From a virus, in the UHGV virus genome UHGV-1366919: a stretch of DNA of 64,000 bases; one strand, 5' to 3'. The notes beneath the pieces were generated by a model, which made no database searches, was not told the DNA's origin, and saw only the letters and a program-made list of their open reading frames with translations. Of the stretch, positions 11,354 through 60,534 are shown one piece after another (the first letter of the stretch is position 1; each line of letters starts with the position of its first letter). Both the position numbers and the translations under genes were made by a program.

Positions 11354-13882
11354 ATGATTAAGATAGATACTTATCGAGATTTAATGACCCGTCCAATTTT
11401 GGAGGCATTAATTGAAAAAAGAAAAACAAAAAGCGATGAAACTGAGCAGCGTCCAGTAGTTAATACTCGAACTAAGCTGGAAAATCGCGGAAAAGGCGAA
11501 GAAAGCTCTTATGTATTTGATTTACCCGAAAAATCAACCTTTAGAAATACTGCCGGAAGAGGATTGCTTGAATTAGCTGCAGATGAGCAGGATGTTCAAT
11601 ATATGATTGCTCAAATTACTCTTTCTAACTTAGGCCTTATTCCTAAAGTTTATCGCTCCAGGAGAATTAACGTTAATCCATCTAATGTTTCCAAGATTAA
11701 TAAGATTAAAACTCTCCTTACTCAATTATTTTCTCATACCGTTTTAGATGATGATGCTCCTGCCGGGGTCCTTAAGACACTTTTGGCCAATCCTAAAATG
11801 GAAATTGACAATAAAGTTGGCTTTAATACTTTTGATTTGCTTAATCGAGTTAAAAGTTGGGACCAGGTTCTTGACAATTTAAAGAAAAATGTAGCCCGTA
11901 GCATTGCAGGTTTATCGGGAAGAGCAGAAAAAACCCATAAAATCTCTCAAGACTTCCATGATCGTATTGGTAAAGCTGATTGGAGTGATACTGTAGATGC
12001 CCCCAAAACTGTTGCTGATGTAGCTAAAAATATTTTTGGTGAATCTGTTGATGAAATTCCTGAAACATTGACTCAAGAGGAAAAAGAAAAGATGTTTGTT
12101 AATGCTTACTCTATTCTTAAACCTCTTTATGAAGCTGCTTCCAAATCCGGATTAAGTCCTGCCGGCTATCTTAAATTCCAGCAAAACCTCGACCGAGTTG
12201 CCGGGGCACTTAAAACTAATGAAATCAGCAAATATATCAATGAAATTGAGGCAAAGCGTCAACCAAGAACAGTTGAGGACTATAAAGATGTCTTAATTGA
12301 AGCATTAGCACGAGCCGTTAAGGGCGATGATTCCAAAATGCAGGTTAGTAATCTTATTTCCAAGCAAGCTACTACCGCTTTACGCTGGTTAACCCGGCAT
12401 TTAACCAAACTTGGCTATACTGGCGGTTTAAAGATTGCTAATGTTCTCGATTATATTAAAAACGGGGATGATGAATACGCCAATGATGCCCGTTATTATC
12501 TGGAAAACATCTATAATATTACTCCGGATCAATTAACTGTACAAAATTTCCCTTCTTTTAAAAAGTTTGTTAATACTTTATATCAAAACTTTGAAAAGGT
12601 AATGGGTTCTTATAAAGCTCTTAAAGATCGTCCGAAAGCATCTCAACGCCTTAATCTTAAAAATCCTGATAAGCCAATGGTTACTAACCGAAAAGGTGGT
12701 ATTGGCCAATCTATTCCGGCTATTAAAAAATCTATCGAAGCTTCAGAAAAACTTCTGGCTAATTTTGATGAAAAAAATGAGCGGTTACAGAAGGCTATTG
12801 AATTCGATAAAGAATGGAAAGCTGGTAAAGCTAAGATGTATGTAGCCGTTACTGCCGGTACCCTTGGCTTGGGCGGTCGAACTGATACTTCTCCTGTAAT
12901 TGAATTTGGCGAAGTAACTCGGCCAGAACTTAACAAGATGACCGCCGATAACCTTGCTAATGGTTATATTGATCTTGTTACTCCAAAATATAAAGAAGCA
13001 TATAAAAATCTTCTTGAATCTGATCCTGAATTACCTAAAAAGATTAGGAATCACATTATTAAGCAGAAGAATGTTGCTCCTAGCAAAGTTGCTAACCAAC
13101 TTCGATTTGACCTTGGCAAAACTTTGAATAAAGACGGCTCTTCTAACCGTCAATGGTATATTGATCGAATCAATAAGTTTAAAGAACAACTTGCCGCTGT
13201 TTCTGGAGAAAAAGTTGAAAAAGAAACTGTCGAACGTAAGAAGCTTTCCGATTTCTCCGATGAAGGAGTTGAGGGTGATATTGATATGCCTTATACAATC
13301 TTTAAAGTTGATGAAACAGCTCCTCGCCTTATTAGCCCAATTATTGTTGCCCTCAAGAAAACACTTGAAAAATATAATGCAACAGTTGACTGGTCTACTA
13401 ACTTTGAAGATGAAGAAGGATATATTACTATCTATTATCCGGAAAATGGCAAGTTCTTTAATGCTAAAGATCCTAAAAAGCTTGTCGAAGACCTTCGTAA
13501 ATCTATTCAAACCATGGCAGCTCGCCTTGGATATGATTATGTAGATATTACAACTTATTCTTATGAATTTGCTAAAGACCAATATGATTCTTCCGGATTT
13601 GTAATACCTCAAGATGATGAAGATTCCGAAGAAGATATTGAAATAAACAATGATAGTGAATCAGCTGAAATAGAATCTGAATTTGAAAGTGAAGATGAAG
13701 AAGAAACTGATGATCCTCTTGTATCGATGGCGCTTGATGCAATCGAACATAAAAAAGATGATTGCGAATCTGCCTCTAAAAAACCTGTTAAACGAGAAGT
13801 AAAATTCATTCCCAATAAGGACAGATACCCTAGGGAACGAATTCAAAATCAATGGCGAAAGAGCTATTTCTGGAACCAATAA
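11354..13882 (+). CDS. Large hypothetical protein (842 aa) with a strongly acidic Asp/Glu/Ser C-terminal tail
   Basis: Long ORF with moderately elevated GC. C-terminus DDEDSEEDIEINNDSESAEIESEFESEDEEETDD. No recognisable catalytic motif. Confidence 0.55.
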   Translation: MIKIDTYRDLMTRPILEALIEKRKTKSDETEQRPVVNTRTKLENRGKGEESSYVFDLPEKSTFRNTAGRGLLELAADEQDVQYMIAQITLSNLGLIPKVYRSRRINVNPSNVSKINKIKTLLTQLFSHTVLDDDAPAGVLKTLLANPKMEIDNKVGFNTFDLLNRVKSWDQVLDNLKKNVARSIAGLSGRAEKTHKISQDFHDRIGKADWSDTVDAPKTVADVAKNIFGESVDEIPETLTQEEKEKMFVNAYSILKPLYEAASKSGLSPAGYLKFQQNLDRVAGALKTNEISKYINEIEAKRQPRTVEDYKDVLIEALARAVKGDDSKMQVSNLISKQATTALRWLTRHLTKLGYTGGLKIANVLDYIKNGDDEYANDARYYLENIYNITPDQLTVQNFPSFKKFVNTLYQNFEKVMGSYKALKDRPKASQRLNLKNPDKPMVTNRKGGIGQSIPAIKKSIEASEKLLANFDEKNERLQKAIEFDKEWKAGKAKMYVAVTAGTLGLGGRTDTSPVIEFGEVTRPELNKMTADNLANGYIDLVTPKYKEAYKNLLESDPELPKKIRNHIIKQKNVAPSKVANQLRFDLGKTLNKDGSSNRQWYIDRINKFKEQLAAVSGEKVEKETVERKKLSDFSDEGVEGDIDMPYTIFKVDETAPRLISPIIVALKKTLEKYNATVDWSTNFEDEEGYITIYYPENGKFFNAKDPKKLVEDLRKSIQTMAARLGYDYVDITTYSYEFAKDQYDSSGFVIPQDDEDSEEDIEINNDSESAEIESEFESEDEEETDDPLVSMALDAIEHKKDDCESASKKPVKREVKFIPNKDRYPRERIQNQWRKSYFWNQ

Positions 13883-48933: not shown

Positions 48934-49863
48934 TTGTCTATGATAAAAAGACAAAGAAGATTTTTAAACACTGAAATTTTTATAAAATTAGCAAAACAAA
49001 TTCATGGAAGCAAATATGATTATTCAAAAGTCAACTATAAAAATGCTAATACAAATGTTTCAATAATTTGTCCAGTTCACAGTTTATTTAGTCAAAATCC
49101 AAGGTCTCATTTGAAAGGGTTTGGATGTGCAAAATGTTCAAATCGAACAGCTAAGACTACAGAAGATTTTATCAAAGAATCAAAGCAGGTTCATGGAGAC
49201 AAATATGATTATTCAGAAACAGTTTACGTCAATAATCACACAAATGTAAAAATCTTTTGCAAAAAAGATAAAATATTCTTTATACAAAATCCTAGAGTTC
49301 ATCTTCAAGGAACGGGATGTCCCAAGTGTGCAAGAAATCAAAAGTTGACAACTAAGGGATTTATAGAAAGAGCTATAGCTATTCATGGTAACAAATATGA
49401 TTATTCTTCAGTAGTTTATCAATCACATGCCAAAAAGATTATTATAATTTGTCCTATCCATGGGCCTTTCGAGCAAAGAGCAAATGGTCATTTGAACGGC
49501 AAAGGCTGTTATAAATGTGCAAAGAGTTATAAGCGTTCAAGGGGAGAGATTGAACTTTGTAAATTTATTAAATCAATTTATTCCGGTCAAGTTTTGGAGA
49601 ATGACAGAACAGTTATTAAGCCAAAAGAACTAGACATTTATCTTCCTGAATTAAAGTTGGCTCTTGAATATAATGGCGAATATTGGCATGATGAAACTAA
49701 GAAACGAAAACCGGGTTATCATAAAGAAAAGCAAAAAGCTTGTGAAAAGAAAGGCATTAAATTAATTGAGGTTTGGGATTCAGAATGGCATGCAGATAAA
49801 GATAGATTTAAAAATCTTATTCAAGAAGTAATAAATTCTATTCAATCACCTTTAAAAATTTAG
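48934..49863 (+). CDS. Putative homing-endonuclease-like protein, third family member: four Zn-ribbon repeats + Vsr/DUF559-type nuclease domain
   Basis: Repeats IHGSKYDYSKVNYKNANTNVSIICPVH.LF.Q....H..G.GC.KC. C-terminal ELDIYLPELKLALEYNGEYWH. Confidence 0.55.
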   Translation: MSMIKRQRRFLNTEIFIKLAKQIHGSKYDYSKVNYKNANTNVSIICPVHSLFSQNPRSHLKGFGCAKCSNRTAKTTEDFIKESKQVHGDKYDYSETVYVNNHTNVKIFCKKDKIFFIQNPRVHLQGTGCPKCARNQKLTTKGFIERAIAIHGNKYDYSSVVYQSHAKKIIIICPIHGPFEQRANGHLNGKGCYKCAKSYKRSRGEIELCKFIKSIYSGQVLENDRTVIKPKELDIYLPELKLALEYNGEYWHDETKKRKPGYHKEKQKACEKKGIKLIEVWDSEWHADKDRFKNLIQEVINSIQSPLKI

Positions 49864-52074: not shown

Positions 52075-52854
52075 ATGACGGATTCAGCTGAACCAATTTA
52101 TCCTGACATTAGACTTTTATATTATTTGTTTGATCCTGAGACAAAAGAATATCTTTGCTTATATTCTCCTGTCCCTAATCCTTATTATAGTCCTAAGAAA
52201 AACCCGGAATCTAAACCTTATATGCCGTTGCCTTCCAATGTAACGGATAAAGAACCATTGGAAACTGCTGAAAATCAAGTTACAGTCTTTGACAAGAAGA
52301 CTCAAAAATGGAGTATTAAGGTTGATTTCAGGAATAAAAAATATTGGGATAAGCAAAGTAAAAAGCTTAATATCATTACCGAAATCGGTAAAAATCCAGC
52401 CAAAACTTGGACGGATATTGAACCCGATGATGACCGAAAAGTTTGGGATGAAGAATCTAATTCTTGGATTTTTCCGATTGAAGTTCTTTATGAGCTAAAA
52501 ATTAAAGAAGTTCGAGAGGCTGCTGATAATGCTGCAAATCTCCTTAAATTAAATTATTCTCAAGCAGAATTTGATACTTGGGAGAAACAAGAAAAAGGAG
52601 CCCGGGCTCTTCAAGCAGATCCAGATTCAACAATCCCAGAAGCTGATTTTGTTCGAACATTAGCGGCAACTCGAGGTTTAACTCTTGATGAAATGATTAC
52701 TAAAATTTTAAATGCTGCTGCTCGAGCATTACTTCCAGGGGCTCAAATCATTGGTATTCAGCAACGATTAGAGGATGAAGTGAAAGTTGCTTTAGAGAAT
52801 AATGATCGAAAGACATTAGAAAATATTAAATTTCCAGATATTAATAGTCTTTGA
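52075..52854 (+). CDS. Hypothetical protein
   Basis: 259-aa ORF. Hairpin terminator immediately downstream. Confidence 0.4.
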   Translation: MTDSAEPIYPDIRLLYYLFDPETKEYLCLYSPVPNPYYSPKKNPESKPYMPLPSNVTDKEPLETAENQVTVFDKKTQKWSIKVDFRNKKYWDKQSKKLNIITEIGKNPAKTWTDIEPDDDRKVWDEESNSWIFPIEVLYELKIKEVREAADNAANLLKLNYSQAEFDTWEKQEKGARALQADPDSTIPEADFVRTLAATRGLTLDEMITKILNAAARALLPGAQIIGIQQRLEDEVKVALENNDRKTLENIKFPDINSL

Positions 52855-52857
52855 ATG

Positions 52858-52895
52858 AAATCCCATGGAGATCAATTCTCCATGGGATTTTTTAT
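52858..52895 (+). terminator. Rho-independent terminator
   Basis: AAATCCCATGGAGA-TCAAT-TCTCCATGGGATTT followed by TTTTATTTT. Confidence 0.65.
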
Positions 52896-52912: not shown

Positions 52913-53758
52913 ATGACTGTCTTAGAATTTGACAAATTTAAAAAGCTGATTACTCCCTGGCCTATTGCCTATTATGGAGAAACTCAAGATCTTTCTTTAG
53001 AGTTTGATCTTCCTACTTGTGCTTGTTTTGAATCAGTTAATAATATTACTTTGAATTTTTATAAGAAAGGCCAAGTTGGAGTTGAAGATAGTCTTTTAGT
53101 TACTTCTGTCGATTTTACATTATTTGACCAAACTACTTGGACTGGACAAGTCTCCTTTACTGGTGAAGCCTTACTTGAATATATTCAATCGGTGGCTGAA
53201 GGAACTGCAGTCATGGATGGAGAATTTATTTTTCAGGTTGCCGGTAATAAGACAATTAAATCTCAAGTTTTTTATGTAAAGATTTATAACTGTAAGCCTC
53301 CACTTCCTCCAGAGCCGGAATATCCTAACAAGGATGAAATGGATAAAGCTATTGCAGATGCTATTGAAAAGCATAATACTGATTTAAATGCTCATAAAGA
53401 TTTATTAATTTCTCGAGTAAATGAAATTGATGTTCTTAATACAACTTCTTTAGAAAATCATTATGTTTATGATGAGATTAATAAAAAATGGATTTTTGAT
53501 ACTACTTTAAACGGTAATGTAATTTATATTAATTCTGTAGATTCAACTATCGAATCTTTAATTTTAGATTTCACTAATAATCGAATTGGCGATTTAATTA
53601 GAATAGTAATCTATAAACCGCTTAATTGTTCTATTTCTTTTATTGCTAAAGACGGTTCTACAGTTTCTTTGGTTGAAGCAGAAAAACCATTAGATTGGTA
53701 TATTTTAGAATTCGTACCAATTCGAGATATGGATCAAATTAAAGTTATTAATAAATGA
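52913..53758 (+). CDS. Hypothetical protein
   Basis: 281-aa ORF. Hairpin terminator downstream. Confidence 0.4.
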   Translation: MTVLEFDKFKKLITPWPIAYYGETQDLSLEFDLPTCACFESVNNITLNFYKKGQVGVEDSLLVTSVDFTLFDQTTWTGQVSFTGEALLEYIQSVAEGTAVMDGEFIFQVAGNKTIKSQVFYVKIYNCKPPLPPEPEYPNKDEMDKAIADAIEKHNTDLNAHKDLLISRVNEIDVLNTTSLENHYVYDEINKKWIFDTTLNGNVIYINSVDSTIESLILDFTNNRIGDLIRIVIYKPLNCSISFIAKDGSTVSLVEAEKPLDWYILEFVPIRDMDQIKVINK

Positions 53759-53781
53759 TTTTTTTCATAATATAAACTTGA

Positions 53782-53814
53782 AACCCGGATAAGAAAAACT
53801 TATCCGGGTTTTTA
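53782..53814 (+). terminator. Rho-independent terminator
   Basis: AACCCGGATAAG-AAAAA-CTTATCCGGGTT followed by TTTTT. Confidence 0.65.
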
Positions 53815-53823
53815 TGTTATAAT

Positions 53824-55059
53824 ATGTTTATAATGTGTTTGTCAAAGCAAGTCAGAATTGCAGTTGTAGGACCACCAGATTCTGGTAAATCAACTTTCAT
53901 TTCCAAAGCAGTAAAAATATTAACAGGGAGAACAGTTAATCCTGATGCCTTAATGAAAGAAGTTCATTATTCCGATGGTAAAGACATTTATGGAAATGAC
54001 GATACTAGAACTATTAAATGTGCAAAAATCTTTTGCAATTATTTCGGGCTTGAAATTTGTTTTTATGATTGTCCCGGACATAAGGAATATATTGACCAAA
54101 TTAAGCAGGGGATAAATGCTGCTTCACTTGTAATTTTCATTAGTGATTATAATAGAAAAGAGGAAAGTGAAAGATATTTTGAATTTATTAAGGAACTTCT
54201 CCCGAAAAATAAAATATTTTATAAAATAAATTCTCATTATCCAGTCGATAATAAAAATACAAGTCCTAATTGTTATAATTTCGATACTGAATTAGGTGAA
54301 GATAATTTTCGATCTATAATTTTTGATTTAATAAAAGAAATAAGAGATAATGAATCTATAGAGCTTATTGATGTAGAGGCAGAAGCTATTTCTTTATTAA
54401 AGGAAAATATTGATTCAACAAAGCATAATGCTATTTTCTTTTCTGGAGGTAAAGATTCTTTAGTCGGACTTCATCTTATTAAACAAGCAGGATTAATTGA
54501 TAATTTTTCTGTTTATGTTCCCTGCTCAGGATTTGATTTTCCGGAAGTAAATCATATAATCAATATCTATGAGCTTCTCTTTAAGAAAAAGTTTTTTAAA
54601 TTTGATAATTCTTTAGGTCTAGACTATCAAAGAAATACTTCTTATGAATTAATGGAAGCCAAAGCTTTGGCTAATGAAAAACTTATTAAAGAAAAGAATA
54701 TTGATTTAGTTTCTATTCAATTCAGAGCTTCTGACGAAGGAGTAAGAAGTAAAGACCATTATATTGTTCAAAAGGAAAATCATACCAGATTTTCTCCTGT
54801 CTTTAATTTTACCGAAGAAAATATTTGGCGATATATTCAAAAATATACTCTTCCTGTTTGCGAACTCTATTTTAAAGGTTACCGTAGTTTAGGAGATTCT
54901 TTTGTTACCGAACCATGTATGCCTCATTTTAAAACAGTAGAGGAAATAATCAAATATATATATGAACACCCCCATACTTCTGAGCGAGACGGGAGAAAAG
55001 CACAAGATAATTCGGTTCCTTTTGCTATGGAACATTTAAGGGATAAAGGATTTTTTTAA
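53824..55059 (+). CDS. Fusion protein: N-terminal translational-GTPase-like (CysN-like) G domain + C-terminal CysD-like ATP sulfurylase / PAPS-reductase-family (PP-loop) domain
   Basis: G1 VVGPPDSGKST and G3 DCPGH (as in EF-Tu/CysN). C-terminal PP-loop AIFFSGGKDSLVGLHLIK. NFTEENIWRYIQKYTLPVCELYF and GYRSLGDSF align with the CysD blocks [22 protein letters not shown] and RFRTLGCWP. Confidence 0.6.
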   Translation: MFIMCLSKQVRIAVVGPPDSGKSTFISKAVKILTGRTVNPDALMKEVHYSDGKDIYGNDDTRTIKCAKIFCNYFGLEICFYDCPGHKEYIDQIKQGINAASLVIFISDYNRKEESERYFEFIKELLPKNKIFYKINSHYPVDNKNTSPNCYNFDTELGEDNFRSIIFDLIKEIRDNESIELIDVEAEAISLLKENIDSTKHNAIFFSGGKDSLVGLHLIKQAGLIDNFSVYVPCSGFDFPEVNHIINIYELLFKKKFFKFDNSLGLDYQRNTSYELMEAKALANEKLIKEKNIDLVSIQFRASDEGVRSKDHYIVQKENHTRFSPVFNFTEENIWRYIQKYTLPVCELYFKGYRSLGDSFVTEPCMPHFKTVEEIIKYIYEHPHTSERDGRKAQDNSVPFAMEHLRDKGFF

Positions 55060-55499
55060 TGAATGAGGAAAAATTTAGAAAAGTAAATCAATTTAATAAA
55101 TGTTTTAGAGCTGAAGATTCCCCTTCTATCCTTTGTATTTGCGGAGAAAGCGGATCTGGAAAATCGACATTGGCTAAAAAGATTCTTGAATATCGGGAAT
55201 CTAATGAAAATATTCATCCGACAGTTGTTCTTGACGGAGATGGAGTACGACATTTTGTTACCCCTGATTTAGGATATTCTGATGAAGATCGAATAAAAAA
55301 TAATGAAATAATTGCAGGAATTGCTTTTTTATTAGTTGTCCAGGGTTTTAATGTAATTATTTCTACTGTTCGGGCCAATGTCGCCTATAACATTCTAAGT
55401 CAATATTGGAATCATAATATTCATTGTTTTGTTTGTGACAAATACACCAGAGATACAGAAGAATATAAAGAAGCATATAATAATTTTATTAAAAAATGA
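55059..55499 (+). CDS. cysC: Adenylylsulfate (APS) kinase, CysC-like
   Basis: ICGESGSGKST plus VVLDGDGVRHFVTPDLGYSDEDRIKNNEIIAGIAFLLVVQGFNVIISTVRAN. This aligns with the E. coli CysC LSGSGKST...[52 protein letters not shown]. Confidence 0.75.
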   Translation: MNEEKFRKVNQFNKCFRAEDSPSILCICGESGSGKSTLAKKILEYRESNENIHPTVVLDGDGVRHFVTPDLGYSDEDRIKNNEIIAGIAFLLVVQGFNVIISTVRANVAYNILSQYWNHNIHCFVCDKYTRDTEEYKEAYNNFIKK

Positions 55500-56329
55500 A
55501 ATCTGAATTAGTTCAAGGACCAATTAAATTTCCTATTGACATTGACCTGGAGAAAATGATTATAACTTCTCCAAATATGAATTTAGAAATAAAAATTTAT
55601 CATGAAGATGAACAAGGATTTTATGTAGATTATCAAAATCAAGTTTACCGTTTAGAATATAATCCAATTTCCAAAAATTATTGGTTTATGTATTTGAACA
55701 AAACACCATTTATTAGAGGATGCTGGTTTGTTCGAGCTAATATTTGTCATAAATTAAAATTTATTTCTTTTATTATCAGCAAAAATGGTTGTTCTTCTAT
55801 TTTAAAAACTTCAATGGTTCATGACGGAACATATGATACTATTCAGGATCATTCTTTTATCTGGAATAATCCGCAATATTGTTTCGAAAAGAATGTTATT
55901 CAAAATATAGCAAAATGCCATGCTTATCCTGACTATATTAAGTTTGTAGTTTTAGAAGATCCATTTAAAAGATTTCTAAGATGGCTGAATTGGTCCTGGA
56001 AAAACAAATATAACAAATACTATAATTTTAATTTATCAAAAGAGGATTTTATTAAAGAACATCTTTGGTCTCTTCCTTATATTACAAGAGAATTAGTTTG
56101 CTGCGATGAACATGTAATTCAACAGGAAAAATATTTTGAACATATCAGAAAAGAAGGATTTGAACCATTAGTTGTTCAATTATCTGATTTACCGATTTTC
56201 TTTAAAAATCAATTTGGAGTTGAGTTAATTAAAAATAATGTTTCTTCTCCTTCTGAACGTATTTTTACAAAGGAAGATTTTACTGAAGATCAACTAAAGG
56301 AAATTTATAAGTTTTTGAATATCAAATGA
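55496..56329 (+). CDS. Putative PAPS-dependent sulfotransferase (Sulfotransfer_2-like 5'PSB and 3'PB motifs)
   Basis: FIISKNGCSSILK resembles the 5'-phosphosulfate-binding P-K-x-G-[ST]-[ST] loop. VVLEDPFKRFLRW resembles the 3'-phosphate-binding RDP..R..S helix. Located directly downstream of the PAPS-synthesis genes. Confidence 0.4.
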   Translation: MKSELVQGPIKFPIDIDLEKMIITSPNMNLEIKIYHEDEQGFYVDYQNQVYRLEYNPISKNYWFMYLNKTPFIRGCWFVRANICHKLKFISFIISKNGCSSILKTSMVHDGTYDTIQDHSFIWNNPQYCFEKNVIQNIAKCHAYPDYIKFVVLEDPFKRFLRWLNWSWKNKYNKYYNFNLSKEDFIKEHLWSLPYITRELVCCDEHVIQQEKYFEHIRKEGFEPLVVQLSDLPIFFKNQFGVELIKNNVSSPSERIFTKEDFTEDQLKEIYKFLNIK

Positions 56330-57072
56330 AAAAGTTTTTTGTAAACATTTTTACATATAAAGAAGATGAAGAGATTGTAAAATACAGTGCTCTTTCAGCC
56401 AAATATGTATTAGGCGATGATGTTGAAATAAATGTTATTGATGATAATAAACATCCCATTTCAGAAGAAAAGATTAAAGAATTAAATGAACTTGGCATTT
56501 TGTATCGTCAATCCACCTTTGACAGAAAACATAATTTAAACGGTAAAGAATGTGTCGTTGGTATTTTAGAAGAAATAAAAAAATCTACCAAAGGGAGGGA
56601 CGGAGTATCAATTAAACTTGATTCAGATACAATGATTGCACATCGAGAAATATTTGATAAGTTTTATGATACTGAAAGCTGTATGTTTGCAGCTTCTCAT
56701 CGGCCAGGCAGTATTTTTTCCGGAATATGCTATCTTATTAAAAATGATATTTTAGATAAGATGATTAAAATGGCCAATGACTGCGATATTCATGAAACGT
56801 CAGCTCCCGAAGATATGACGATCGGATGCTTGGCAACTATTTGTTCTATGCCTAACAGCATTTATATTATGCCTGAATGGAATCCCAATAAAAAAGAGGA
56901 TGATGGACTTTGTACTGCCTGGAATTATGATTGTGATTTAAAATATATTGAAGAATATTATAAACTTTTCTTTATTGTTACATTTGGAAACTGGTTTACG
57001 GTCAAAGGCAATACTAAAGCTTGCCGAAATAAACCTATGGAGCTCTTCCTTGATCAAATCTTAAATATTTGA
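56326..57072 (+). CDS. Putative glycosyltransferase-like protein (GT-A-like DXD motif)
   Basis: INVIDDNKHPIS and KLDSDTMIA (DxD-like). 248 aa. Overlaps both neighbours by 4 nt, consistent with operonic coupling. Confidence 0.3.
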   Translation: MKKFFVNIFTYKEDEEIVKYSALSAKYVLGDDVEINVIDDNKHPISEEKIKELNELGILYRQSTFDRKHNLNGKECVVGILEEIKKSTKGRDGVSIKLDSDTMIAHREIFDKFYDTESCMFAASHRPGSIFSGICYLIKNDILDKMIKMANDCDIHETSAPEDMTIGCLATICSMPNSIYIMPEWNPNKKEDDGLCTAWNYDCDLKYIEEYYKLFFIVTFGNWFTVKGNTKACRNKPMELFLDQILNI

Positions 57073-59456
57073 ACATCATGCAAAAGTCCGGTATTAGTGA
57101 CAAGACAGGGAAATCTTATATCAATGGAATTTCAGTAACAAACAGTACCATAACTGTTACTGAAGCTACCTCTTTAAATTTCACCATTGGAGGACCAATT
57201 ACTACTACTGTACAAGGAAGTGAAGAAGCATTAATTTCCTTCAATCTTGATGCAGTAAAAAGCAGGGAAGCTTTAGGATTAGGTACTGCTGCTCTTATTA
57301 ATACCGGTACAGCATCTGGACAAATTCCTGTTTTAGACGCCCGGGGTAAATTACCTGAGTCTGTCATTGGAGATATTGCCCTATATGATAAGTTTGATAT
57401 AGCTTCTGCTGATAATATAAATGATATTGTAATATTTATTAATGGCATTACTACTGGAATTACTCCTAAACAAGGAGATATGATTTTTGTTCTAGGAGGA
57501 AATGTCCAAGGAACCTATTGGATTACAGTCACTAAAACTCCAGGAACTTATACTGCGGATGATATTTCTGGAATTACTACACCGTCTGGAACCATTAGTT
57601 CTATTACCTTTTTAGGAACAAATTATACTCCTGTCAATGGTATTATTACTCTCCCGGCAAATATTGGCTGGAGTTCTTTAACTGGAATTCCTACAGCTTC
57701 TGTATCGGCTTCAGGTATTGTTAAATTAAATGATAATACAAATTCTACTTCTACTACTGAAGCAGCAACTGCAAATGCTGTTAAGAAAGTTCAAGATTTT
57801 GCTAGTACCAAAATTTCTGGTATTTGGTTCGAAACTAACCAAGGATTAACTTCAGAACGAAATAGTTTTACTATATTTGGAACTGGCCCAATTTATATTG
57901 TAGGGAGTGATGCTGGAGATAAATCTCTTATATCAGTAAATTTAGATACTGCAAGAGTTAAAGACTCTTTAAATATTCAATCTATCGCCCCAGCAGGACC
58001 TTATCCTCCGACTATTCCTGAAACCTACGGAACAGGAGCTGCGCCTGAACTTTTAGGTAAACTTGATAGAAGCTTCATGCCAAGAAATATTATTGGTTTT
58101 ACATCTTCTTCTAGTTTGCCGCCAGTAAATCCTCCGTCTGATTTTATTCAAGGTTTTGCTTTTACAGCACAGGATAATAATGGTGAGGAAACTCCTGGTT
58201 TTAGTGTTTCTGTTTTTGAAAAGTATTATTCAACTGGAGAAATATGGAAAGGTATTAATTATTTCCTCAATTCTTCTTTAACAGCAACATCCGGACCTGA
58301 CCCAGTTATTCCAGCAACTGGGGCTGATGGTAAATTAGATGCTTCATTTATTCCAGATAGTGTGAGCGGAGGAATTGGCATTGTTAATCCTAGTAATCCG
58401 GGTACAACACTAACTGCTAAAACTTTAAGAATCGGAGCACTAGACGGGTTAGGCATATCTATTGCACCTCTTGGCCCGAATGGTTCAGAAATTAATGTTT
58501 TTTATGGATTAGAAGAAACTTCATTTAAATCTTATCTGACTAATACTATTGGCATTAAAACTGCTGCTTATCAAAATACAGGAACTACAAATGGAACAAT
58601 CCCTTTAATCGGTGCTAATGATAAATTACCAGCAAGTATTATTCCAGATGAAATTGGCGGAAATTTTAGTTCCTTTACTATTAATAATGGATATGAAGCT
58701 ACTCAAAGTATAAGCTCTAATCCTAATCAAATTAAAATTTGGAACTCTCCATTTTTTATTGGACCTCATGAAGCCACTGATTTAGTTAATGAATTATATC
58801 TTAATAATGAGGGTGAAGTTACTTTATCTCAGCGTTTTACTGATAGGGCCGCCCTTCGTTATATTACTTGTGTTGAAGATTCAGGTAATTATCGCTTTAC
58901 TACATATTATTGTGGCCCCTTATTGATATTTGAATCATTTTCAGCTTATACTAAAGGACCATTTTTAAAGAATTCTACTAATTTTAATTATACTGGTACT
59001 CATCCCGGTGAACTAAGTAATAACGCTTATACTAAAATACAAATAGATCCTTATTTTGCTTTAGCAAGAAGTAATTATATTATAAGTAATACAACTAGTG
59101 GAAGTTTAATTGATATTTATACAGATCTTTTAACTGGAAAATATTATTTTCGGCCAAGCTCATTATCTTCAACAAATACTCTTATCGTTAATCTTTATAT
59201 TGATAAAATAACATTACAAAATTACCATATTGATAATACTCTTATTTTAGACCCCAGGAACCTTTCAGTTGCTCCTCAAAATATTCAAATATTATTGCCG
59301 AATGAAACTACAGGAAACTATAAGCTGTTTATAGACCAGGGCGATGTTGGGACATTAACGAATACTCATCTGTATAATATTAGTATTGGTATTATTCGAC
59401 CAACGGAAAGTCCAGCTCTAATAATGGTAAAATATTCTCAGTTTGTACCAGTTTAA
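57069..59456 (+). CDS. Tail-fiber protein with phage-tail-fiber repeat motifs
   Basis: Recurrent G..G.IP.L...GKL..S.IP units (GQIPVLDARGKLPESVI, GADGKLDASFIP, GTIPLIGANDKLPASIIP). Thr/Gly/Asn-rich, 795 aa. Confidence 0.6.
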   Translation: MNIMQKSGISDKTGKSYINGISVTNSTITVTEATSLNFTIGGPITTTVQGSEEALISFNLDAVKSREALGLGTAALINTGTASGQIPVLDARGKLPESVIGDIALYDKFDIASADNINDIVIFINGITTGITPKQGDMIFVLGGNVQGTYWITVTKTPGTYTADDISGITTPSGTISSITFLGTNYTPVNGIITLPANIGWSSLTGIPTASVSASGIVKLNDNTNSTSTTEAATANAVKKVQDFASTKISGIWFETNQGLTSERNSFTIFGTGPIYIVGSDAGDKSLISVNLDTARVKDSLNIQSIAPAGPYPPTIPETYGTGAAPELLGKLDRSFMPRNIIGFTSSSSLPPVNPPSDFIQGFAFTAQDNNGEETPGFSVSVFEKYYSTGEIWKGINYFLNSSLTATSGPDPVIPATGADGKLDASFIPDSVSGGIGIVNPSNPGTTLTAKTLRIGALDGLGISIAPLGPNGSEINVFYGLEETSFKSYLTNTIGIKTAAYQNTGTTNGTIPLIGANDKLPASIIPDEIGGNFSSFTINNGYEATQSISSNPNQIKIWNSPFFIGPHEATDLVNELYLNNEGEVTLSQRFTDRAALRYITCVEDSGNYRFTTYYCGPLLIFESFSAYTKGPFLKNSTNFNYTGTHPGELSNNAYTKIQIDPYFALARSNYIISNTTSGSLIDIYTDLLTGKYYFRPSSLSSTNTLIVNLYIDKITLQNYHIDNTLILDPRNLSVAPQNIQILLPNETTGNYKLFIDQGDVGTLTNTHLYNISIGIIRPTESPALIMVKYSQFVPV

Positions 59457-59458
59457 AA

Positions 59459-59914
59459 ATGGGAGAATTAGGATTAGCTAGAAATAAACGATATAATCAA
59501 GGTTATTTTTATCCAAAAAATAAACATAAGTTTATCGGAGAATATGCAATTTACCGTTCAGGTTTAGAGTTAAAGTATTTTCAATTTTTGGATAATAATC
59601 CCAAGTGTATCAAATGGAATTCAGAAGGAGTAAAAATTCCTTATTTCTGGGAAGGAGATAATAAGTGGCATACTTATTATATCGATTTGGCTGCTTCTTT
59701 TAAAAAAGAAAATAAGATAGAAACTTTTTTAATTGAAATTAAGCCTTACCGGCAAACTATAGAGCCTGAAGCAACAAAGCGAAAAAGGAAAAAAACTTTA
59801 TTAACTGAACAAATAACATTCAGTCAAAATCAAAGTAAATGGAAAGCCGCTTCTGAATTTGCATCCAAAAACGGCTTAAAATTTATTATTCTTACTGAAA
59901 AAGATATTGGTTAA
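59459..59914 (+). CDS. PD-(D/E)XK nuclease, TnsA-N / Hjc-like
   Basis: RSGLELKYFQFLDNNPKCIKW...YYIDLAAS...FLIEIKPYRQT has the D...E.K arrangement of the restriction-endonuclease fold. Confidence 0.45.
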   Translation: MGELGLARNKRYNQGYFYPKNKHKFIGEYAIYRSGLELKYFQFLDNNPKCIKWNSEGVKIPYFWEGDNKWHTYYIDLAASFKKENKIETFLIEIKPYRQTIEPEATKRKRKKTLLTEQITFSQNQSKWKAASEFASKNGLKFIILTEKDIG

Positions 59915-60534
59915 ATTTCTTCTTCAGTTTCTTTATATTGTTCTTTACCGGTGGGATTAAAGGCAATCAATGTTTCTTCAGAAGGCATTTTCGGAGTTAC
60001 CAATACTCGATAAGAATGCCTGTTTGCTCCGGAAGGGCTCATTTCATCAAAATTAAAAGTAATAATATCAGGATATTTCTTTAACGCAGAAACATTAGAA
60101 ATATCTTTAAATTTGATATTTTGAGCTGAACCTTTTCGTCCATATCCTAAGGCTTTTTCTCCACGGTTAAATGTTTTAATTTGACGAGGAATAAAACTAT
60201 TATTAATAGGTTCAGTAATTTTAATCGGAGGAACTCGAGTACCGGATCCAATTTGATCGGTATCAACAACAGTAATATAAAAGCCGGGGTTTAACTTCAT
60301 CCATTTTCTTAATTGATCTACGGAAGCCCTTCTCCATTCAGTTCCTTTATTAAAGATTTTAGCTAAACTGCCATACTTGTTATCATCATATTTTAATAAA
60401 TCCTTAGCCTCTTCTCTGGCTGAAGCTCTTCGTTCTTTATCTGCAAGCTTCCTTTCCCATTCGTCCCACTTTGCGGGATCATCAAAAACTCCTTCATTAA
60501 AAATTTCTAAAGCGATTTGAGATAAATCAGTCAT
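59911..60534 (-). CDS. Hypothetical protein
   Basis: 207-aa ORF, the only minus-strand gene in this stretch. Confidence 0.4.
   Translation of the reverse strand: MTDLSQIALEIFNEGVFDDPAKWDEWERKLADKERRASAREEAKDLLKYDDNKYGSLAKIFNKGTEWRRASVDQLRKWMKLNPGFYITVVDTDQIGSGTRVPPIKITEPINNSFIPRQIKTFNRGEKALGYGRKGSAQNIKFKDISNVSALKKYPDIITFNFDEMSPSGANRHSYRVLVTPKMPSEETLIAFNPTGKEQYKETEEEI

Follow-up and report, generated by a model that had tools for sequence, protein, structure and literature searches.

A phage cassette resembling dedicated sulfation clusters

Several bacteria carry gene clusters dedicated to sulfation: NodP/NodQ with NodH for the Nod factor of Sinorhizobium, CysD/CysNC with Stf0 for sulfolipid-1 of Mycobacterium, and RaxP/RaxQ with RaxST in Xanthomonas. 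In these clusters a sulfurylase of the CysD type with its GTPase partner, an adenosine 5'-phosphosulfate (APS) kinase and a sulfotransferase are encoded together, and the 3'-phosphoadenosine 5'-phosphosulfate (PAPS) they produce serves one specific sulfated product, not cysteine synthesis. Here we analyzed a stretch of 64,000 nucleotides from the virus genome UHGV-1366919 (hereafter the window), in which a four-gene cassette at positions 53824-57072 unites predicted homologs of these enzymes with a putative glycosyltransferase (GT), immediately ahead of a fiber-like gene. We propose that this cassette likewise supplies PAPS for one sulfated product. Judged from sequence comparisons and structural models, the operon probably encodes an autonomous pathway leading from sulfate through PAPS to a sulfated glycoconjugate.

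The genes of the cassette and the gene into which it runs are the following:

53824-55059, plus strand: FUS (gene 1), predicted ATP sulfurylase in which a G domain is fused to a CysD-like part, 411 aa
55059-55499, plus strand: mini-APSK (gene 2), truncated APS-kinase homolog, predicted to convert APS to PAPS, 146 aa
55496-56329, plus strand: ST (gene 3), predicted sulfotransferase, 277 aa
56326-57072, plus strand: P4 (gene 4), predicted glycosyltransferase with a GT-A fold, 248 aa
57069-59456, plus strand: fiber-like protein, candidate receptor-binding protein and possible acceptor, 795 aa

The five open reading frames (ORFs) overlap successively by 1, 4, 4 and 4 nt (TAATG, ATGA, ATGA and TTGA). 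The initial annotation of this region, made from the sequence alone, had described four consecutive, translationally coupled plus-strand genes running straight into the 795-aa fiber gene; its ORF coordinates are exact, and the last of these overlaps joins the cassette to the fiber. An alternative fiber start is the in-frame ATG at 57078, 6 nt past the P4 stop. Searches with profile hidden Markov models (HMMs) matched genes 1-3 to PAPS_reduct/GTP_EFTU, APS_kinase and Sulfotransfer_2, the last at the level of the family, in agreement with the enzyme classes first assigned.

The phage genes depart from their bacterial counterparts in architecture. The known GTPase is a separate, three-domain CysN/NodQ protein, whereas FUS carries a minimal G module of ~170 aa N-terminal to its CysD part. 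The phage APS kinase is a free-standing half-domain, while the known ones are fused to the GTPase. The phage sulfotransferase is of the PF03567 type, and the cluster as a whole resides in a lytic-type T4-like phage.

FUS is a predicted CysD-like ATP sulfurylase with a fused G domain

FUS begins with a G domain (PF00009 GTP_EFTU, E 7e-8) and ends with a PP-loop domain (PF01507 PAPS_reduct, E 2e-17):

53851-54195, plus strand: G domain, aa 10-124, with G1, G2 and G3 motifs
54358-55056, plus strand: CysD-like PP-loop domain, aa 179-411

Several features of the C-terminal domain point to CysD. In the SGGKDS PP-loop (aa 207-212), S207, G209, K210, D211 and S212 are invariant among 37 homologs and G208 is kept in at least 90%. 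The top PDB match of FUS is CysD in the CysD-CysN complex (1ZUN_A, E 2e-15), and its top NCBIfam model is CysD PRK05253. The C-terminal tail, SERDGRK...AMEHLRDKGFF, carries the CysD-specific pattern ERxGR...ME...G(Y/F)F and aligns as a segment of its own with residues 269-325 of 1ZUN_A. No catalytic cysteine of the CysH type is conserved in the 37 homologs; since the only conserved cysteine of FUS lies in the G3 motif DCPGH, reductase chemistry of the CysH type is unlikely. We found more than 100 homologs that match FUS over its full length, with 39-55% identity.

The G domain contains the motifs G1 (GPPDSGKST, aa 16-24), G2 (DTRTIK, aa 60-65) and G3 (DCPGH, aa 82-86), which are conserved among homologs as GxPDxGKST, DTRT and DCPGH. 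It is nearest, only weakly, to G domains of the EF-G, EF-Tu and eRF3 type, and it comes without CysN domains II/III.

Three observations weigh against reading FUS as a canonical sulfurylase with its GTPase. The protein scores far below the curated cut-offs for CysD (82.5 against 195 bits for PRK05253; 58.1 against 396.6 bits for TIGR02039). The aligned homologs have no NKxD (G4) motif. CysN is absent among the PDB matches of the G domain, which is not specifically CysN-like. Because NKxD is missing and the resemblance to the EF type is weak, GTP is only a candidate nucleotide for the G domain. Compared with CysD-CysN (PDB 1ZUN), FUS shares the SGGKDS motif, CysD homology, the C-terminal tail and a G-domain partner of the translation-factor type, but it is a single chain, scores under the CysD cut-offs and has a G domain reduced by domains II/III and NKxD. 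The CysD insertion before 'RTLG' is also missing, and the region there resembles CysH ('GYRSLGD'). Thus, of the CysD-like ATP sulfurylase with a fused GTPase in the initial annotation, the CysD likeness and the domain fusion stand, while the low scores and the absent G4 motif weaken the rest. We read FUS as a predicted CysD-like ATP sulfurylase with a fused G domain.

ST is a predicted, divergent Sulfotransfer_2 enzyme

ST is composed of two parts:

55538-55690, plus strand: N-terminal beta domain, aa ~15-65, extra to the catalytic domain
within 55496-56329, plus strand: PF03567-type catalytic domain, aa ~80-277

On its own, the window protein lies under the threshold of Sulfotransfer_2 (PF03567; E 0.0018, 18.9 bits against a gathering score of 22). 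However, an exhaustive HMMER search recovered 53 relatives, and PF03567 is matched by 23 of the 46 aligned family members (best E 9.9e-12). A word-indexed protein search had returned only near-identical sequences and 1-3 distant ones, and the same was true of P4.

Using published definitions of the 5'-phosphosulfate-binding and 3'-phosphate-binding motifs (PMC11625862), we located the former at aa 94-101 ('ISKNGCSS'), where position 96 is Lys in 37 of the 46 members and Arg in eight. The latter (PxxRxxS) is represented by P156 and R159, position 159 being Arg in 42/46. Position 162, the Ser of the motif, is Arg in the window protein and in 20 members and Ser in 19. D204, H206 and Q210 are likewise conserved in the family.

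Structure prediction of 55496-56329, a check proposed in the initial annotation, gave a confident sulfotransferase fold. The AlphaFold model (predicted local distance difference test, pLDDT, 90.7) has a sulfotransferase P-loop-like alpha/beta fold whose matches are mostly sulfotransferases. A PDB sequence search with the ST profile returned nothing meaningful, tblastn of the window protein against GenBank phages gave no match, and a related-locus search with a 12-sequence ST alignment found the same phage only. Together, the family-level profile, the motifs and the fold bear out the sulfotransferase-type PAPS-binding motifs first noticed, and they suggest that ST is a divergent enzyme of the Sulfotransfer_2 family.

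A half-size APS kinase accompanies FUS

Mini-APSK matches PF01583 at 56.6 bits, above its gathering score of 21.1, and PDB APS kinases down to E 1e-10. It contains a P-loop (aa 29-37) and LDGDGVR (aa 58-64), and G29, S31, G34, K35, D59-G60-D61 and the APS-binding Arg, R64, are invariant across nine lineages.

Its size argues against an ordinary APS kinase. The match covers just positions 3-82 of the 152 in the PF01583 profile, about half of the domain, and the TIGR00455 score is 61.8 bits against a curated cut-off of 138.7. ISTVRAN stands in place of FISP, and the RDxKGLY lid is missing together with the whole C-terminal half. The CysC-like APS kinase of the initial annotation is thus sustained by the profile score and the invariant motifs, but only for the N-terminal half of such an enzyme.

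The truncation is not peculiar to the window. Across the other loci that we fetched (L numbers below), the APS kinases linked to FUS form a conserved half-domain family of 112-146 aa, in which the P-loop, DGD and Arg are kept and FISP and the lid are gone. Most are shorter than the window copy, at 112-124 aa; a distant homolog in L011 is full-length, with the lid RDVKGLYKK:

L003 11179-11523: FUS-linked APS kinase
L034 12524-12868: FUS-linked APS kinase
L039 11818-12162: FUS-linked APS kinase
L041 12052-12426: FUS-linked APS kinase
L042 2088-2426: FUS-linked APS kinase
L011 11526-11990: FUS-linked APS kinase, full-length

Small ORFs 3' of mini-APSK in relatives were considered as the missing half of a split kinase; they have no APS_kinase match, which ruled this out.

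FUS, the APS kinase and the sulfotransferase recur together in divergent phages

To follow the module across genomes, HMMs built from our own alignments were run over all fetched loci. Every FUS context that we examined is a large T4-like phage contig, of up to 362 kb. FUS has a domain of the ST family as its immediate neighbour in the window and in L001, L005/6, L033-L037, L040 (fragmented), L041, L042 and L045. This adjacency extends over more than 10 divergent phage lineages and at least six gene orders:

FUS-APSK-ST-P4: window
ST-FUS: L001, L036, L037, L045
ST-FUS-P4: L005/6
FUS-ST-APSK: L035, L041
FUS-ST-ST-APSK: L034
ST-FUS-ST-ST-APSK: L033
ST-FUS-APSK: L042

Mini-APSK was found in most ST-FUS loci. 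As a point against a complete pathway everywhere, an HMM scan of the L005/6 loci found no APS kinase. Overall, sulfurylase, APS kinase and sulfotransferase genes are clustered and co-inherited, as in the NodPQ/NodH clusters, in more than 10 divergent lineages.

Glycosyltransferases are the module's recurrent companions. A larger protein that ends in the ST domain is encoded immediately upstream of FUS-APSK in L003/4, L010/29 and L030, and the fused N-terminal parts in L003/4 and L010/29 match GT2_4/GT92 or GT2_4 plus Gly_transf_sug in Pfam. In L038 and L039, FUS-APSK is flanked by GT11, GT2 and GT10 genes. The types found near the module in relatives are GT2, GT10, GT11, Caps_synth/GT32 and GT92. 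Because the adjacency persists through shuffled gene orders and domain fusions, we place FUS, APSK and ST in a single glycan-serving pathway and not in general sulfur assimilation. The comparison is strong evidence that the three predicted enzymes form one pathway for glycan synthesis.

All four cassette genes are under purifying selection among strain variants, with ratios of nonsynonymous to synonymous substitution rates (dN/dS) of 0.06-0.17: FUS 0.11, mini-APSK 0.15, ST 0.17 and P4 0.06. Pattern scans of ~186,000 bacterial and archaeal species genomes for FUS, and of bacterial and archaeal genomes for ST, found no relative; being pattern-based, they leave absence unproven.

Other features were seen around the module. 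GTs of families mainly known for making blood-group and Lewis-type glycans (GT11 and GT10 fucosyltransferase types, GT6) lie beside or near it in L038 (7687-9777), L039 (12159-13016) and L040 (19534-20274). Adhesin-like proteins with PA14 and BspA-type LRR_5 domains are encoded just upstream in L005 (6335-8421) and L010 (7360-8601). In L040 (11423-12124), the ST adjacent to FUS is split into three short ORFs, an apparent pseudogene, which indicates that the module can decay. Genes of the IS605/TnpB type (OrfB_IS605, Cas12f1-like_TNB, Y1_Tnp) lie within a few kb in L042 (3067-3225, 4405-4671 and 11574-12101), and they are a possible vehicle for module mobility.

P4, and not the sulfation genes, tracks tail and fiber genes

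P4 carries a DD motif (aa 39-40), a DxD motif (D99-S-D101) and PED (aa 161-163), and seven sequences, as little as 25% identical, all keep D39-D40, D99-x-D101 and E162-D163. The predicted model recovers a GT-A Rossmann-like fold, so the DXD glycosyltransferase-like protein proposed at the outset is supported by both fold and motif. Weighing against this assignment, the mean pLDDT is 66 and the GT-A fold also occurs in nucleotidyltransferases. P4 has no match in the Pfam, NCBIfam or PHROG libraries. Its only homologs in GenBank phages are unannotated tail-module proteins of Akkermansia muciniphila siphoviruses, at 25-28% identity:

L043 4983-5720 and L044 4983-5756: P4 homologs of Akkermansia phages Chantilly and Chambord; also in Moulinsart and DTMo-2021a

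These homologs keep DD, DxD and PED and are flanked by proteins of ~730 aa and ~835 aa. The siphoviruses may thus encode a tail-associated glycosyltransferase. In L005, a radical-SAM gene (12010-12717) directly follows P4.

The fiber protein contains a Phage_fiber_2 repeat (PF03406, E 2.5e-11; aa 211-249, nt 57699-57815), and tail-fiber PHROGs match it over that repeat only. Internal repeats of the form 'G-x-x-(G/D)-K-L-x-x-S-x-I-P' occur at 58320-58358 and 58611-58649, and the protein is rich in Thr (11.4%) and Ser (9.7%). It is the sole gene of the region that diverges between strains: the fiber is 86% identical in L018 (10242 onward), against 95-100% for its neighbours, with a dN/dS of 0.65. 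This divergence is typical of a diversifying receptor-binding protein, the role we predict for it. As the fiber diverges while the cassette remains 95-100% identical, there is no co-variation of cassette and fiber at the strain scale, contrary to what the comparison suggested in the initial annotation might have revealed.

The genes around the cassette, and the terminator upstream of it, are:

52075-52854, plus strand: tail-fiber-assembly-like gene upstream of the cassette (phrog_105, E 5e-16)
52913-53758, plus strand: conserved 281-aa gene (p281) directly upstream of the cassette
53780-53812, plus strand: intrinsic-terminator-like hairpin closing the upstream gene (14-bp stem, 6 GC pairs, T-run)
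59459-59914, plus strand: T4 gp4-like head-completion gene (phrog_218, E 2e-43; PF08722), starting 2 nt past the fiber stop

RNA folding gave the hairpin -24.2 kcal/mol (z = -6.6), and none of 200 shuffles was equally stable. It had first been placed at 53782-53814, a slight misplacement. The cassette had also been described as bracketed by terminators; this holds for its upstream side, but a terminator scan found no terminator-like site between cassette and fiber, nor 3' of the fiber. With no terminator in between, FUS-APSK-ST-P4, the fiber and the gp4-like gene probably form a single transcription unit, starting just past the hairpin. The 53780-53812 hairpin and a second strong terminator hairpin at 52857-52891 (15-bp stem) are nearly alike (GAAA(T/C)CC...GG(A/G)TTTT), and each ends a single-gene unit (52913-53758 and 52075-52854, respectively) just 5' of the cassette.

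The nearest lineage without the sulfation genes, L007-9, is 69% identical in gp4 and 59% in the protease, and its gene order is gp13, p281 homolog, P4, a 557-aa protein, a tail-fiber-assembly-like gene and gp4. Because p281 stands directly before P4 in this order, FUS-APSK-ST resembles a three-gene insertion between p281 and a P4-plus-fiber unit; in the window lineage the trio looks like an insertion ahead of a pre-existing unit. Elsewhere, it adjoins terminase, SbcC-like, NAMPT or DNA polymerase genes. The large module-adjacent proteins of other lineages were considered as fibers and ruled out, being terminase, SbcC-like or of unknown type. Since the neighbours there are not fibers, the link to the fiber is weakened. 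No homology was detected among the proteins encoded 3' of P4 homologs; only the N termini of the window fiber and the 557-aa protein of L007 resemble each other, and not significantly. Comparison of these gene orders indicates that it is P4, not FUS-APSK-ST, that tracks tail and fiber genes. The proposed wiring of the cassette to the adsorption apparatus thus survives for P4, which repeatedly lies near tail or fiber genes, but not for the trio, which occurs in unrelated contexts. A functional link of the sulfation genes to the fiber is weak and circumstantial.

Proposed pathway and its acceptor

Our model suggests that the PP-loop domain of FUS would form APS from sulfate and ATP, with NTP hydrolysis by the fused G domain driving or gating this step in a CysN-like role. 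Mini-APSK would then phosphorylate APS with ATP to give PAPS, from which ST would transfer sulfate to a carbohydrate hydroxyl. The acceptor carbohydrate would be made or extended by P4 and, in other lineages, by GTs of the GT2, GT10, GT11, GT32 or GT92 type, some of them fused to ST. From the homology, folds, linkage, domain fusions and selection observed above, we infer these catalytic activities, the acceptor and which nucleotide the G domain uses. The self-sufficient route from sulfate to PAPS to a sulfated glycoconjugate, as first put forward, is thus favored by homology, linkage and ST-GT fusions; the half-size, lid-less kinase counts against it, and its activities are predictions.

The pathway could end on the phage particle itself. 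We tentatively place the acceptor glycan on a protein of the virion surface, for which the adjacent fiber is our first candidate. This placement is favored by the presence of P4 in tail modules, by probable co-transcription with structural genes and by analogy with giant viruses and mycobacteriophages. Work by Freeman et al. in 2023 reportedly showed by experiment that mycobacteriophage-encoded GTs decorate virion proteins. That system shares with ours phage GTs among structural genes and serves as the model for a virion acceptor of P4; it differs in that it involves no sulfation and GT families unrelated to P4, itself known from sequence alone. The sulfotransferases of giant viruses are suspected to modify virion glycans (PMC11625862). 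Speculatively, the fibers or virions of these phages may be covered with sulfated glycans, possibly of a mucin- or Lewis-like type, which the phages would build with variable GTs (fucosyltransferase-type GT10/GT11 and GT6 in relatives).

The same chemistry might instead act on a host envelope glycan, such as capsule, lipopolysaccharide/O-antigen, teichoic acid or S-layer glycan, an acceptor only slightly less likely than the virion; the sulfated surface would block superinfection or spare the progeny from being lost on debris. The GT2, GT10, GT11, Caps_synth/GT32 and GT92 types beside the module belong to families that typically build surface polysaccharides, fiber genes are not a regular neighbour of the sulfation genes, and the cassette stays constant between strains while the fiber diverges. 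Nevertheless, inspection of the cassette enzymes by eye revealed neither an evident N-terminal signal nor an evident membrane anchor, genes for a flippase or polymerase were not seen nearby, and P4 homologs lie within tail modules in three phage groups. Moreover, surface conversion is mainly a trait of temperate phages, and this T4-like genome is presumably lytic.

A virion acceptor need not be a glycan. RaxST sulfates RaxX, and on this model ST would act directly on Tyr, Ser, Thr or hydroxylated residues of the fiber or another protein, independently of P4. Iyer et al. 2010 (PMC2938197) predicted bacterial operons of a sulfotransferase and PAPS synthetase acting on phage tail-collar-type and collagen-like proteins; the extra N-terminal beta domain of ST could bind a protein, and the cassette adjoins an S/T-rich fiber. 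We nonetheless regard direct protein sulfation as improbable, given that the ST family falls within PF03567, a carbohydrate-sulfotransferase family, and has GT-fused members in three lineages.

It is more improbable still that FUS and mini-APSK are ordinary auxiliary metabolic genes (AMGs) that boost assimilatory sulfate reduction in the host, and so its cysteine supply, beside unrelated neighbours. Viral cysD, cysN and cysC have been catalogued as assimilatory, with cysD coming mostly from human-associated samples (10.1101/2021.01.05.425418). Against such a role, a sulfotransferase domain is adjacent, in several orders, in nearly all lineages examined; FUS lacks the reductase Cys; FUS and APSK are translationally coupled to ST and the GT; and the regions examined showed no PAPS reductase.

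Finally, DNA glycosylation is common among T4-like phages, and Dnd and BREX systems contain PP-loop/PAPS_reduct domains. By analogy with T4 hydroxymethylcytosine glucosylation, 5-hydroxymethyldeoxyuridine kinase pathways and DndC-type chemistry, the PP-loop enzyme, P-loop kinase, transferase and GT might hypermodify phage DNA, but despite a weak BrxP match (17 bits) and the radical-SAM gene after P4 in L005 we consider this very improbable, because it is CysD, APS kinase and carbohydrate sulfotransferases in particular that come out as top matches, the GTs around the module are of glycan-building families, and no hydroxymethylase or base-modification gene was found among the window proteins scanned.

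Relation to described viral genes

Sulfate activation and sulfotransferases have each been recorded in viruses. Kieft et al. (bioRxiv 10.1101/2021.01.05.425418) assign viral 'organosulfur' AMGs cysD, cysN and cysC to assimilatory sulfate reduction, in a text that never uses the word sulfotransferase. What they describe shares with our cassette a virus-encoded sulfate activation; here it is bound up with sulfotransferases and GTs, an association that points to sulfation. Their cysD count may include members of the FUS family. Sulfotransferase ORFs are annotated in T4-like cyanophages (ACG-2014f, P-SSM7, S-T4), in Ralstonia phage phiRSL1 and in giant viruses (Megavirinae, pithoviruses). They belong to the same fold class as ST (Foldseek E 3e-5 to 1e-3), at only 11-17% identity. 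A 2023 study states that the 'biological function ... remains unclear' for phage sulfotransferases (PMC10580990). In the literature, whose full text was incompletely covered, we found no account of a combined phage module for sulfate activation, sulfotransfer and glycosylation. The novelty first claimed thus holds for the combination and not for its parts, as viral cysD/cysN/cysC and sulfotransferase ORFs were already known.

If the proposed pathway is correct, sulfation would join the small set of phage-encoded modifications, with a PAPS supply of its own, independent of host sulfate assimilation. Many 'cysD' AMGs of gut viromes would then have been misread, serving glycan sulfation rather than sulfur assimilation, and the metabolic potential of viromes would be read differently if viral cysD/cysC, which have been reported to abound in human-associated viromes, serve sulfation. 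The single-chain G-domain/CysD sulfurylase and the lid-less, half-size APS kinase are of interest for the mechanism of GTP-coupled sulfate activation, and the two proteins could serve as compact PAPS-regeneration parts in biocatalysis. Should the virion be the acceptor, sulfated fiber glycans would bear on adsorption, mucus adherence and immune visibility. A virion coated with sulfated glycans would be the first sulfated phage particle, and mimicry of host glycans could affect its adsorption, mucus retention and immune recognition.

The phage carrying the cassette

The T4-like assignment made at the outset is supported by structural and replication genes of the T4 type in the window (portal, gp13, gp4-like, S77 prohead protease, gp32, UvsX/RecA, DnaB-like helicase, PolB and gp46/47-like) and by gp23, which lies just downstream of the corresponding region in the near-identical contig L002. 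The portal is at most 27% identical to that of any cultured phage. A DNA search of 53000-60000 against GenBank phages gave no match, and no cultured relative could thus be identified. The same phage is present on many metagenomic contigs at 96-100% identity, the longest of 195 and 201 kb.

Defence-system models (PADLOC) gave weak partial matches only, such as BrxP over the FUS PP-loop at the 17 bits given above, and the idea that the cassette is an anti-phage defence system was rejected for want of a solid match. No tRNA genes were found in the window. The T4 late-promoter motif TATAAATA is depleted there, with 5 found against 13 expected. Owing to this depletion, TATAAATA gives no information on expression timing. 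To judge from the sequence, this distant T4-like lineage and T4 differ in their transcription signals.

Anaerobic NrdD and bile-salt-hydrolase-like genes in relatives hint at a gut-type anaerobic habitat. The choloylglycine-hydrolase genes (bile-salt-hydrolase-like, CBAH), unusual in phages, lie within 2-7 kb of the sulfation module in L038 (13570-14898) and L040 (17665-18531). In the window, a 309-aa HNH/homing-endonuclease-like ORF (48934-49863; phrog_559, E 3e-60) lies between the gp13-like neck gene and the fiber region. This ORF contains three internal direct repeats of ~60 nt, spaced by ~190 nt (48970, 49159 and 49351).

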